Shown: positions 7,679 through 11,239 of the stretch, in pieces
How positions within the stretch are numbered: the stretch's first letter is position 1
Layout: each line of letters opens with the position of its first letter
Virus record (IMG/VR): IMGVR_UViG_3300011443_000002
Span: 3,316-67,315 of that record
Length of the DNA: 64,000 bases
Direction: 5' to 3' (one strand)
Source of the DNA: a virus
Notes under the pieces: generated by a model
The model's input: the letters and a program-made list of their open reading frames with translations, nothing else
What the model was told of the DNA's origin: nothing
Databases searched by the model: none
Translations under genes and position numbers: made by a program

Positions 7679-7713
7679 ACAGAGATAATGCCTGAGGGAA
7701 AATCGAGAAGCAA
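7670..7713 (-). promoter_or_regulatory. Promoter TTGCTT-17-CATTAT plus ATGAAGACG; copy 1 of a 44-bp perfect direct repeat
   Basis: Identical to 8190-8233. Confidence 0.85.
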
Positions 7714-7775: not shown

Positions 7776-7994
7776 TCAGCCGACGACGCAGATACCCTTG
7801 TGAACCAGACCAACAAGCTCGGCGATCTCGTGCTGGCGAGCGTAGACGACAGGCGAGAAACGGCCATCGGCCTGGACGATGATCATGTGATTCACGGTCT
7901 CACGCGTCCGGCCGATCAGCGGCAGAACCTTGTCCAGAGCCTTGATCGCGTTGTCGGCGGTAGCGTAGGACTTGGCGTCAGCAAACATTCTCAT
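7776..7994 (-). CDS. Hypothetical protein
   Basis: AGGAG SD; 72 aa. Confidence 0.75.
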   Translation of the reverse strand: MRMFADAKSYATADNAIKALDKVLPLIGRTRETVNHMIIVQADGRFSPVVYARQHEIAELVGLVHKGICVVG

Positions 7995-8021
7995 GATTTT
8001 CTCCTGTATCTACTGGTGGAT

Positions 8022-8198
8022 TCAGCGGACGATCACGGCGATGCAGAGACCGTCTGCACGGTAGACATAGCCTTCTTCGTCGATCGTGAAACGCTCCGTC
8101 TTGCTGAACGAAGCCATCGAGAACGTCGGCTCGAAGTTGAGGATCTGGCCGTGAATCCGAACGGCAGCAGCGATTTCAACGATCGTGAACGTCTTCAT
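8022..8198 (-). CDS. 58-aa leaderless hypothetical protein (below ORF-track cutoff)
   Basis: MKTFTIVEIAAAVRIHGQILNFEPTFSMASFSKTERFTIDEEGYVYRADGLCIAVIVR. Confidence 0.75.
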   Translation of the reverse strand: MKTFTIVEIAAAVRIHGQILNFEPTFSMASFSKTERFTIDEEGYVYRADGLCIAVIVR

Positions 8199-8233
8199 AC
8201 AGAGATAATGCCTGAGGGAAAATCGAGAAGCAA
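8190..8233 (-). promoter_or_regulatory. Promoter TTGCTT-17-CATTAT; copy 2 of the 44-bp direct repeat
   Basis: Identical to 7670-7713. Confidence 0.85.
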
Positions 8234-8316
8234 GGGTAAAAACGACGATCGACGAAAATATATTTTGAGCCGCTCTGGTATGCTGGCCGGAGGTGCCAGC
8301 CTGCTACCAGGACGAG

Positions 8317-8813
8317 ATGTCGGAATTACGACTGATGAAGTGTCGGCTGGACGACTGAGCAGATAACGGTTTCGTGAGGTGTCGGTTTTACGACTGAGCA
8401 AGTGTCGGAAAGACGACTGACAACTTTCGCTTTACGTAAGCGGATGGCCGGTGTCGGAAAGACGACTGAGTAAGTGTCGGCCTGACGACTGGCAACTTTC
8501 GCTTTACGTAAGTGAGGTGTCGGCGGGACGACTGATGAAGTGTCGGAAAGACGACTGCAAACTTTCGTAAAGCGTAAGCGATGGGTGGGTGTCGGAAAGA
8601 CGACTGAGTAAGTGTCGGCGGGACGACTGACCTCGATTACGAAATTACTGACTAGGTTTCCCGAGCCGCTGGTGGGTGTCGGCGGGACGACTGAGTAAGT
8701 GTCGGAATCACGACTGAGCAGATAACGAAACCGTGATCCTCGAGGATGGGTGTCGGCTGGACGACTGAGCACGTGTCGGGAATACGACTGATGTAGTGTC
8801 GGAAAGACGACTG
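8317..8813. repeat. Array of 15 copies of GTGTCGG-N4-ACGACTG (six pairs and one triplet, 23-bp period within clusters)
   Basis: Copies start at 8317, 8340, 8379, 8402, 8451, 8474, 8517, 8540, 8589, 8612, 8676, 8699, 8750, 8773, 8796; only the first has A instead of the leading G. Confidence 0.97.
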
Positions 8814-8860
8814 AGAAGGTGCCTAGTGGTCCCTGGCTGGCCTGACCCTATATCTAGTGG

Positions 8861-8889
8861 TTGTATTGCCTGCAAGGATCTACTAGGCT
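8861..8889 (+). promoter_or_regulatory. Rightward promoter TTGTAT-17-TAGGCT
   Basis: Same -35 as the 53426 and 55183 promoters; faces the primase gene. Confidence 0.6.
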
Positions 8890-9012
8890 GCTCGTCCCGG
8901 ACTTGGTAGGGACGGCCATCCCTCGCTAAAGTGTCGTAAAGATTCGACTTCCGGCTCCAGACGGGAGTCAGATGCCGAGCGACAGCCAGGATCGGGACTA
9001 TCTGGAGGCTTC

Positions 9013-9240
9013 GTGAACGGAGCGTTTTACTCGTGGCTGGTCGCAAATCATCCTGTATTTGCCAGCCGTTTTCCTGCCTTGCGTCTTCCGACGGCCAGCA
9101 GCCGACTATATGTCCTGCTCCGAGCCGCTCGGAACGATCTAAAAATCAGATCAGAAATCCGGATCCATCATCGTCTGTGGAGGCACAGATCGATGACGGA
9201 GGACTCATGCCCGAAACAGATGGGAACAGGCTGTGAGTAA
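9013..9240 (+). CDS. Possible small protein upstream of primase
   Basis: GGAGG SD close to the GTG; overlaps the primase start. Confidence 0.4.
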   Translation: MNGAFYSWLVANHPVFASRFPALRLPTASSRLYVLLRAARNDLKIRSEIRIHHRLWRHRSMTEDSCPKQMGTGCE

Positions 9241-11239
9241 GGTGAAGCCTGTGCCGGAGTGGCTGCAAAAGTATGTGGATCGTGGCTTCCGCCTTGTGTT
9301 CTACCCAACAAAGCGGAAAGGTCCAGTGACAAAGGGATGGGAAGCCAAGACGTTCACAGCAGCCGACTATAAAGAAGGCGACAACGTCGGCGTGATGTGC
9401 GGTCACGAGATCCAGCCTGGAAAGTTCTTAGTCGATATCGACTTTGATTGGGCTGAGGGAGTGCCGCTCGCGAAGCGTCTCCTGCCTCCAACCGAATTCG
9501 GTTTCGGCCGTGATAGTCGCAAGCTCTCGCATGCCTTCTATACGGCTGGCTCTCCGCTGGTCACTCGAGTGTTCGACGACGTTGATGGCAAGCGTATCGT
9601 CGAAATGCGAGCCTTGTCCAGCGATGGGACGCTGGGTCATCAGACGATGATCCCGCCTTCGGTGCATCCGAGTGAGGAGATCGTGACGCTCCGCATGGAT
9701 GGAGCCATCGGCCACGACGACAACGTCGAGAGACGCGTCGTCATGTATGCCATCGGATGCTTGCTGTTCCAGCATCTCGGCCAGCGTGGATTGCTACACG
9801 ACGTTCGCTTGGCTCTCGGAGGCTTCTTACTTAAGGTTGGTTTGACCGAGGAAGAGACCATCACGATCGGTGAAGCGATCGCTGAAATTACTGGCAACAA
9901 CATCAACGACGTTGAGACGACAGTAAGGTCCACAGCCTCTCGCCTGAAGCAAGGCGAGCGAGTGGTCGGGAAGCAGGCACTCGAAAAGGCCATAGGGGAC
10001 CAGGGAAAAAACGTCACAGCGAGAATCAAACAGTGGCTCGGGATCAAGGACTTTATCGTCAACGATAAGGGAGCCATCATCGCCAACAAAGAAGAGAACA
10101 TCGTGCGTGGGCTGAATCAGCTTGGTGCCGAAGTTCTATTCGACGATTTCTCACAGCGGGCGAAGGTCAAATACAACGGCTTCAACGGCATGTTGATGGA
10201 CGAGCAGCGAAACAGGATGCTGCTGGACCTTGACAAGCATTTCCACTTCTCGCCTTCGGCGGAGCGATTCGACATGGTCCTGATGGACATGGCGTATCAC
10301 AACCGAAAGCATCCGGTGCGCGAATACCTCGAGAGCGTCGAGTGGGATGGGAAGCCGAGAGTAGATGAGTGGCTGATCAAATTCGGAGGTGCAGCCGACA
10401 CCGAATATGTTCGAGCGGTCAGCGCCATCGTTCTTATTGCTGCTGTGAAACGTGTGAGATCTCCAGGCTGTAAGGTGGACGAGATGCTGGTGCTGGAGAG
10501 TCCACAGGGTCAAGGCAAGAGCAGTGCTCTCCGTGCCTTGTGCCCGAAAGAGGACTGGTTCTCAGACGATTTCCCGATGAACGTGGACTCGAAAGAAGTA
10601 ATTGAGCGGACGGTTGGTAAGTGGATCATCGAGGCAGCGGAATTGTCAGGAGTAAGAAAGGCGATGTCCGAGCATTTGAAGTCTATGGTCTCGAGACAGA
10701 CCGATGGTCCGGTGCGAATGGCCTATGCTCGATTGCCTATGGAGCAGCCACGACAGTTCATCATCATCGGCACAACAAACTCGACGGCATACCTGAAAGA
10801 CGAAACAGGCAACCGACGTTTCTGGCCTGTCCGAGTCAAGGTCTTTGACGTTCCTGGCATCATCTCCGAACGTGATCAGATATGGGCTGAGGCTGCTGCT
10901 AGGGAAGCGAAGGGCGAGCGGAGCAGCCTGCATCCGAGCCTGTGGCCGATGGCTGGTCTCCAGCAGGAGCGGAGACGTATTGAGGATCCATGGGAAGTTC
11001 TGTTGGATTCCGAGTTTCCTCTGGACCAGAAGATCCGAATCACGCCAGAGAAAATCTGGGAGGCACTCGGCATCCAGCCTGAGAAGCGTGATGAACGCGG
11101 TCAGGAGCGGATCATCAAGATCATGCAGCGTCTTCAGTTCCGCCGTGTCACCGTGCGAAGCGATGATGGCAAGGCGACAAAGGGATGGGGACGAGATGTA
11201 ATCGAGGGAAATCTTCAACTGGAGCTTGAGGACAAATGA
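9233..11239 (+). CDS. Bifunctional primase-polymerase fused to VirE (VapE)-type helicase
   Basis: N-terminal prim-pol motifs (GW...NVGVMCG...LVDIDFD, SHAFY, QTMIPPSVHPS); C-terminal Walker A ESPQGQGKSS, WIIEAAEL, IIGTTNS-YLKDETGNRRFWPV. Confidence 0.92.
   Translation: MSKVKPVPEWLQKYVDRGFRLVFYPTKRKGPVTKGWEAKTFTAADYKEGDNVGVMCGHEIQPGKFLVDIDFDWAEGVPLAKRLLPPTEFGFGRDSRKLSHAFYTAGSPLVTRVFDDVDGKRIVEMRALSSDGTLGHQTMIPPSVHPSEEIVTLRMDGAIGHDDNVERRVVMYAIGCLLFQHLGQRGLLHDVRLALGGFLLKVGLTEEETITIGEAIAEITGNNINDVETTVRSTASRLKQGERVVGKQALEKAIGDQGKNVTARIKQWLGIKDFIVNDKGAIIANKEENIVRGLNQLGAEVLFDDFSQRAKVKYNGFNGMLMDEQRNRMLLDLDKHFHFSPSAERFDMVLMDMAYHNRKHPVREYLESVEWDGKPRVDEWLIKFGGAADTEYVRAVSAIVLIAAVKRVRSPGCKVDEMLVLESPQGQGKSSALRALCPKEDWFSDDFPMNVDSKEVIERTVGKWIIEAAELSGVRKAMSEHLKSMVSRQTDGPVRMAYARLPMEQPRQFIIIGTTNSTAYLKDETGNRRFWPVRVKVFDVPGIISERDQIWAEAAAREAKGERSSLHPSLWPMAGLQQERRRIEDPWEVLLDSEFPLDQKIRITPEKIWEALGIQPEKRDERGQERIIKIMQRLQFRRVTVRSDDGKATKGWGRDVIEGNLQLELEDK

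Follow-up and report, generated by a model that had tools for sequence, protein, structure and literature searches.

Exact reverse-complement boxes in the linkers of a 15-copy phage iteron array as probable traces of replication template switching

The quasi-palindrome model of template switching is reportedly that of Ripley, and a palindrome-creating insertion is a classic product of template switching. Quasipalindrome mutagenesis has been described in E. coli (PMC7202029), where trapped covalent DNA-protein crosslinks also stimulate template switching (PMC6357072). The four-point template-switch model of Loytynoja and Goldman covers spacer inversions as well as fragment-only inversion (PMC5453318). 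In a yeast survey, 2-5-bp spacer inversions arose via intermolecular template switching and were reversible over short times; the survey used arms of at least 7 bp, and spacer inversions were seen only above 9 bp (PMC8604942). Minute inversions of hairpin loops are known from non-coding chloroplast DNA (PMC12371153), and arrays of direct repeats with an internal dyad are known as iteron arrays (PMC4980987), among them the Rep/ori system of SaPI (PMC9371898). Here we compare with these systems an iteron array of an uncultured phage, whose linkers contain short boxes in two exactly inverted orientations.

The window analysed comprises 64,000 of the 67,368 bases of an IMG/VR record of this phage; the 67,368-bp record carries direct terminal repeats and is rated complete. 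The array is located between divergent early operons, upstream of the Prim-Pol/VapE primase-helicase gene (Table 1), which is the first large gene of the rightward operon and is preceded there by a small conserved ORF (9013-9240). The neighbouring small proteins belonged to no Pfam or PHROG family, an Rfam search of 7900-9400 revealed no known RNA family, and a simple scan called no sigma-70-type promoters around the array. A 14-mer, AAATCGAGAAGCAA, was found at 7700-7713 and again at 8220-8233, each time preceding a leftward gene, and its complement includes TTGCTT, a -35-like hexamer. This suggests that the two copies are repeated leftward early promoters, though the simple sigma-70 scan called none. 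The GC skew changes sign near 6-8 kb; this change goes together with the switch of gene strand, and it does not discriminate between an origin and a regulatory role.

Table 1. Features of the array locus and their counterparts in related contigs (positions are those of the window unless a contig handle is given; L1 to L6 are the long linkers of the array, and L130 to L137 are related contigs).
Feature	Position	Strand	Basis or remark
First gene of leftward early operon, 58 aa	8022-8198	-	No family; lineage-specific like the array
Array of 15 direct 18-bp iterons, GTGTCGG-N4-ACGACTG	8317-8813	+	Pattern scan and parsing
20-nt A-type linker core	8358-8377	+	Paralog at 8717-8736
Box A, linker 1: ACGGTTTCGT (ACG / GTTT / CGT)	8366-8375	+	String comparison; loop of predicted mini-hairpin
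20-nt B-type linker core	8421-8440	+	Paralogs at 8493-8512 and 8559-8578
Box B, linker 2: CGCTTTACG	8428-8436	+	Ancestral orientation by parsimony
Box B, linker 3: CGCTTTACG	8500-8508	+	Orientation as in linker 2
Box B, linker 4, inverted: CGTAAAGCG	8566-8574	+	Exact reverse complement of the L2/L3 box; derived and young by parsimony
Divergent box, linker 5, after copy 10: TCGATTACGA	8633-8642	+	Orientation relative to other boxes ambiguous
Box A, linker 6, inverted: ACGAAACCGT	8725-8734	+	Exact reverse complement of 8366-8375
Perfect 12-bp palindrome, linker 6: ATCCTCGAGGAT	8736-8747		Includes CTCGAG; absent from paralog L1
Conserved non-coding element, window	8846-8950 (hairpin 8908-8923)		Downstream of the array, before the small ORF that precedes the primase gene
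Conserved non-coding element, relatives	L130 3556-3650; L133 3296-3385; L135 2590-2690; L136 1680-1775; L137 2060-2155		
Prim-Pol + VapE-like (D5-type) primase-helicase	9233-11239	+	PF05272 4.6e-68, PF09250 9e-5
GGTTACA/TGTAACC cluster, window	about 13.9-14.1 kb		Upstream of terS
GGTTACA/TGTAACC clusters, relatives	L134 4100-4500; L135 5700-6100; L136 6300-6700; L137 6600-7100		

The pattern scan found 15 iterons against 0.8 expected, and none of 100 shuffles reached such a count. All 15 lie on the + strand, and the array is unique within the complete genome. Each iteron contains an inner dyad, GTCG-N6-CGAC, whose geometry is that of a protein-dimer site. The iterons are grouped into six pairs and one triple, with a spacing of 23 bp within a group and thus 5-nt mini-linkers, and the groups are separated by long linkers L1 to L6 of 21, 31, 25, 31, 46 and 33 nt. 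We infer that the array is a landing pad with many sites for a putative, probably phage-encoded dimeric DNA-binding protein, and that it would act either as an origin/copy-control array or as a regulatory array.

The 7-mer AGGTGCC abuts the array on both sides (8291-8297 and 8817-8823), and the stretches around its two copies are alike (AGGTGCCAGCC... and AGGTGCCTAGTGG...); the 7-mer may be left over from a sequence whose expansion gave the array, or its two copies may be chance. There is also a 148-aa ORF on the - strand (8326-8772) that runs across the array and whose product would be a repetitive SR.ADT.SVV.PTP peptide. It stays open across the array because the module lengths of 72, 66, 72 and 87 are multiples of 3, and such a run of in-frame module lengths has a chance of about 4%. 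We rejected this ORF as a gene: the variation sits in contiguous N4 blocks and not at third codon positions, and the two sites of a pair, 23 nt apart, are both conserved even though they are not in the same frame.

Relatives of the primase-helicase number in the hundreds, and the closest is 66% identical. Six related contexts, with primases 57-66% identical, have the same divergent layout, a structured non-coding element and the small ORF that precedes the primase gene; the array was absent from the homologous intergenic region in all six. The C-terminal region of the primase is conserved in these array-less relatives, which does not mark the enzyme out as a specific binder. The exact two-iteron pattern had no match in viral, metagenome or genome contigs. 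A relaxed core pattern had 0 viral and 25 metagenome matches, and all 25 were unrelated short tandem repeats on contigs sharing no protein with the phage. In viral contigs, patterns of the linker cores gave nothing beyond single chance matches with unrelated loops. A terminase-based search for relatives found nothing, no DNA match to cultured phages was obtained, and the closest cultured phage is 33% identical, in the helicase part only. One unrelated metagenome contig, L157 (Ga0187779_10023298), has three 23-bp-spaced sites on its - strand at about 2100-2170, one of which agrees with iteron 2 of the window in 17 of 18 letters (GTGTCGGCTGGACGACA), and it has no proteins in common with the phage. 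These sites may be a coincidence of the common GTCG-N6-CGAC dyad or may reflect a related DNA-binding specificity.

Clusters of at least five GGTTACA/TGTAACC heptamers recur in the relatives, 1.5-3.5 kb downstream of the primase gene. Because these clusters are conserved in the relatives, it is they that make up the family-wide repeat system, whereas the 15-copy array is specific to this lineage. The clusters are candidates for an origin or a pac site. The non-coding element downstream of the array is common to relatives with just 57-66% primase identity, and its hairpin, AGGGA-CGGCCA-TCCCT, keeps five pairs through two-sided changes among six sequences. It had no Rfam match, and it is probably a structured leader or a small RNA of the rightward early operon.

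Within the array, a CG-(A/T-rich 4-5 nt)-CG box was found in each of the six long linkers, against about 0.7 expected per 187 nt at the genome-wide rate. The sequence-only reading had assigned such a second CG-N4/5-CG element to every linker; this applies to the long linkers, whereas the 5-nt mini-linkers inside the iteron pairs have no CG box. The long linkers belong to family A (L1 and L6) or family B (L2, L3 and L4), with L5 divergent. Because they are paralogous, the six boxes are not independent occurrences and are mostly due to common descent.

Box A occurs once in each orientation. The 8-mers at 8367-8374 (CGGTTTCG) and 8726-8733 (CGAAACCG) are exact reverse complements, and their surroundings agree over 18 nt to the left and 5 nt to the right. 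Both linkers share the string ACGACTGAGCAGATAACG....CGTGA, in which the sole difference is the central GTTT of L1 against AAAC of L6. Box B is the same 9-mer in L2 and L3 and its exact reverse complement in L4, with 8 nt of identical sequence to its left and 6-8 nt to its right; the letters truly changed are the central five, CTTTA in L2/L3 and TAAAG in L4. The reverse-complement span, including the self-complementary flanks, is therefore a 10-mer in box A and a 9-mer in box B, while the inverted block proper is 4 nt and 5 nt, respectively. As the bounding CG is self-complementary, it does not locate the breakpoints. The two pairs of inverted strings had already been read from the sequence, together with a TCG-ATTA-CGA box after copy 10, and all of them were reproduced letter for letter, the last as the divergent box of L5.

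Under random replacement of a block, the chance of obtaining an exact reverse complement would be 1/256 in box A and 1/1024 in box B, jointly about 4e-6; if each position merely had to differ, the chances would be 1/81 and 1/243. By the random-replacement odds, the flip pattern is not chance.

Tandem Repeats Finder reported periods of 72 and 138 bp in the array, and modules 2+3 (8379-8516) have a duplicate in modules 4+5 (8517-8675). Around L2 and L4, 16 of the 18 variable positions (N4 spacers and mini-linkers) are identical, which indicates a recent duplication, and the box B flip is one of the few changes between L2 and L4 after the 138-bp duplication. Since the older paralog L3 is oriented like L2, the box in L4 would be the derived one. 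L1 and L6, in contrast, are old paralogs (8/18 variable positions identical), with one copy for each state of box A. No relative carries the array and there is thus no outgroup, so the polarity of box A and the "fixed" status of the flips rest on one assembly. In L1-L3 the boxes have their T-rich strand on top, whereas in L4 and L6 the bottom strand is the T-rich one, a mirror arrangement about the centre of the array (8358-8749); with five oriented boxes from two events, such a sorted left/right polarity is expected in about 1 of 4 cases and is not significant.

Conservation of the linkers was compared with that of the adjacent N4 and mini-linker positions. The flanks of the core are identical at 16/16 positions between L1 and L6, where only 8/18 adjacent variable positions agree (Fisher p = 3e-4); the corresponding values are 15/15 and 9/18 for L2/L3 (p = 1e-3), and 14/15 and 8/18 for L3/L4 (p = 4e-3). 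The letters of the loops are all kept, whether as they stand (L2 = L3) or in reverse-complemented form, and the flips are nearly the sole differences among paralogous cores. Because the core flanks are better conserved than their variable neighbours, the linker cores look constrained, and the 20-nt cores appear to behave as functional elements rather than filler. The exact preservation of the loops amid randomised neighbours points to constraint on the loop itself, which leaves room for an orientation that is functional. We also considered the boxes as decayed third iterons and rejected this, because alignment to the iteron consensus scored the linkers no higher than their shuffled versions (semi-global alignment, p = 0.34-0.75 for all six linkers, 2000 shuffles).

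The centre of the core would be readable from either strand, which suits a shape-dependent or bending element, or a site indifferent to polarity. A third, orientation-independent binding box per module had been proposed from the sequence. The significant conservation of the linker cores relative to the N4 spacers and mini-linkers supports this proposal only indirectly; the binding role is putative, and a conserved accessory box in the linkers is plausible. The 20-nt cores are as conserved as the iterons and point to a second component of a nucleoprotein complex on the array.

Both micro-inversions are probably fixed scars of short-range replication template switching, of the type known as inverted-repeat spacer inversion. 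Traces of a template-switch inversion were one of two processes suggested from the sequence, and this is the reading that the comparison supports best: the changes are exact in-place reverse complements in the loops of small quasi-palindromes, bounded by self-complementary micro-homology. Exact in-place reverse-complement changes of this kind are described in PMC5453318 and PMC8604942. On this explanation, the array would have grown via tandem duplication of a module composed of a site, 5 nt, a second site and a long linker, each long linker containing a small quasi-palindrome whose centre is A/T-rich (ATAACG-GTTT-CGTGA in type A, CTTTCG-CTTTA-CGTAAG in type B). Twice, and separately, a nascent strand would have switched at the CG (or ACG) micro-homology to the complementary strand, used it as template for the 4-5 bases of the centre and rejoined its own template at the matching CG (or CGT); the centre would thereby be swapped for its own reverse complement and the remainder left unchanged. 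In type B, the flip of linker 4 would be young and postdate the 138-bp duplication. Both flips were probably tolerated, the role of the core being indifferent to the polarity of its centre; an inversion leaves the base composition and the AAA/TTT tract intact, and a structural or bending element, or a site for an accessory protein, would suit such tolerance. By extrapolation from the crosslinks that stimulate template switching in E. coli (PMC6357072), a densely but non-covalently bound array of sites could also be prone to it.

In 5/6 linkers (1, 3, 4, 5 and 6), the inverted block coincides with the loop of the mini-hairpin of lowest energy. At -1.6 to -4.3 kcal/mol these predicted hairpins are weak, and they do not surpass those of shuffled sequence; with z-scores of -1.4 to +0.4 against shuffles, stable linker hairpins were rejected. 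The perfect arms are ACG/CGT (3 bp) in box A and CG/CG (2 bp) in box B, so arms bounding the inverted segments are present but minimal in comparison with the at least 7 bp of the surveys. The outer arms are complementary at 5 of 6 positions, and as their one mismatch is in place in both forms, the breakpoints lie within the CG steps. Apart from four short palindromes, the array has no inverted repeats of 6 nt or more. One palindrome, TTACGTAA at 8432-8439, overlaps box B of linker 2 and was found only in L2/L3. The 12-bp palindrome of linker 6 may be a candidate third template-switch footprint, as an insertion that would have copied the adjacent GAGGAT from the other strand.

The other process suggested from the sequence was a site-specific inversion, that is, an inverton or phase-variation switch run by a recombinase, and beyond the existence of two orientations nothing speaks for it. 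The sequence-only reading had seen no recombinase in the window, and this extends to the complete 67,368-bp genome, where PF00239 (serine) and PF00589 (tyrosine) recombinases had no match at E <= 1, while the same searches gave matches in 13-14 of 14 control genomes; ParB was also absent from the complete genome, its positive controls being matched. The arms of 2-3 bp and the segment of 4-10 bp are a further objection: inverton crossover sites are inverted repeats of a dozen or more bp around a segment long enough for synapsis, and the invertible segments and crossover sites of Hin, Gin and Fim are orders of magnitude longer than those of the boxes. We know of no recombinase synapse that can invert a segment of 4-10 bp, or anything near it, and the chance that such a switch is at work here is practically nil. 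An artefact of assembly or sequencing, or a set of coincidental point substitutions, seems extremely unlikely as well. The region is repeat-rich and was assembled from a metagenome, with a single source and no second assembly found; however, k-mer assembly cannot flip 4-5 nt bounded by 2-3 bp, the same clean pattern appears at two different boxes, and coincidental substitutions would have a chance of at most 1/81 x 1/243. For box B there is an explanation with no inversion at all, in which an ancestral near-palindrome, CTTT(A)CGTAA(A)G, had its left arm duplicated in L2/L3 and its right arm in L4, which within a palindrome would look like a flipped middle. L2/L3 indeed read as CTTTCG+CTTTACG, a near-tandem left arm, L4 reads as CGTAAAG+CGTAAG, a near-tandem right arm, and the palindrome TTACGTAA is confined to L2/L3. 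It would, however, require two independent insertions of equal length, 7 nt, that are exact complements down to the extra A; L2 and L4 are recent duplicates, both 31 nt long and with cores otherwise identical. It also leaves box A unexplained, and we regard it as very improbable.

Two further explanations accept the inversions and differ on their fate. The boxes could be engaged in an ongoing, reversible flip-flop of hairpin loops, as in chloroplast mini-inversions, so that the phage population would be heterogeneous. The inverted blocks are the loops of small stem-loops, and spacer inversions are reversible over short evolutionary time (PMC8604942); but the stems that drive recurrent flips in that survey exceed 9 bp, against 2-3 perfect bp here, L2 and L3 have the same orientation despite a long divergence, and the single consensus assembly has one state per box, which makes such a flip-flop quite unlikely. 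Alternatively, the orientation itself may be functional, the boxes being asymmetric sites (a directional bend, a signal for priming or the target of an accessory protein) with a polarity set relative to the centre of the array. The polarity of the loops is mirrored (GTTT, CTTTA, CTTTA on the left; TAAAG, the ambiguous ATTA and AAAC on the right), the loops are exactly kept as reverse complements with significantly conserved core flanks, the array lies at the divergence of the early operons and at the sign change of GC skew, beside the primase-helicase gene, and a mirror-symmetric layout would be expected for a bidirectional origin. Against this, there are just five oriented boxes from two events, so that the sorted pattern is a 1-in-4 matter, the GC-skew change coincides with that of the gene strand, the relatives lack the array and conserve another repeat system, the GGTTACA clusters, and no binding protein was found among the small neighbours, which have no Pfam or PHROG family. 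We consider a functional orientation rather unlikely. Its mechanistic extension, in which micro-inversion would re-orient asymmetric functional sub-sites (such as priming or loading signals) oppositely in the two halves of the array, leaving the iterons undisturbed and making a mirror-symmetric bidirectional origin out of a unidirectional tandem array, is likewise speculative and, in our judgement, unlikely. Fixed scars of template switching stay the preferred reading.

In comparison with known systems, the boxes resemble invertons (Hin, Gin, FimB/E and shufflons) in outcome only, a segment being present in two orientations; the phage has neither recombinase nor crossover sites, and its segment of 4-10 bp stands against hundreds of bp. 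The array itself resembles iteron arrays (PMC4980987; SaPI Rep/ori, PMC9371898) in its many direct repeats of about 18 bp with an internal dyad, grouped with linkers and located beside a primase-helicase gene and between divergent promoters. Iteron origins have multiple direct repeats, oriented alike and about 17-22 bp long, and the 15 + strand copies agree with this, although 15 is many for such an array. The cognate initiator that binds such repeats is usually encoded beside them, and the phage array has the Prim-Pol/VapE gene as its neighbour. Conserved position or presence in related replicons is another characteristic, and here none of the relatives whose primase is 57-66% identical carries the array (0/6 related contexts); no Rep-type initiator or binder was identified in the phage.

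The flips are like the minute inversions in hairpin loops of non-coding chloroplast DNA (PMC12371153) in that a loop is found in both orientations with its stems unchanged and its surroundings otherwise identical. The chloroplast inversions have long stable stems and recurrent, homoplasious flips, whereas the phage stems are minimal and L2 and L3 keep one orientation.

The closest likeness is to the spacer inversions. These are recognised by a cluster of adjacent differences that is the exact reverse complement of the segment it replaces, and both boxes present such a cluster with unchanged flanks; the inverted blocks are also within 2-6 bp, have flanks of inverted micro-homology and are located in hairpin loops, and a palindrome-creating insertion lies nearby, in linker 6. 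They are unlike the surveyed spacer inversions in three respects: the arms of the phage boxes are 2-3 perfect bp (5/6 with one mismatch) against at least 7 and usually more than 9 bp, the events are found between paralogous copies in one genome and not between orthologs, and the host sequence is a putative protein-binding repeat array of a phage. The flips would then be a further example of a known mutational class and reveal neither a new mechanism nor a switch. If this reading is true, the locus is a clean within-genome case of spacer inversion in a regulatory or origin array of a phage; spacer inversion would work with arms far below the norm of the surveys, and a threshold of 7-9 bp may under-count such events.
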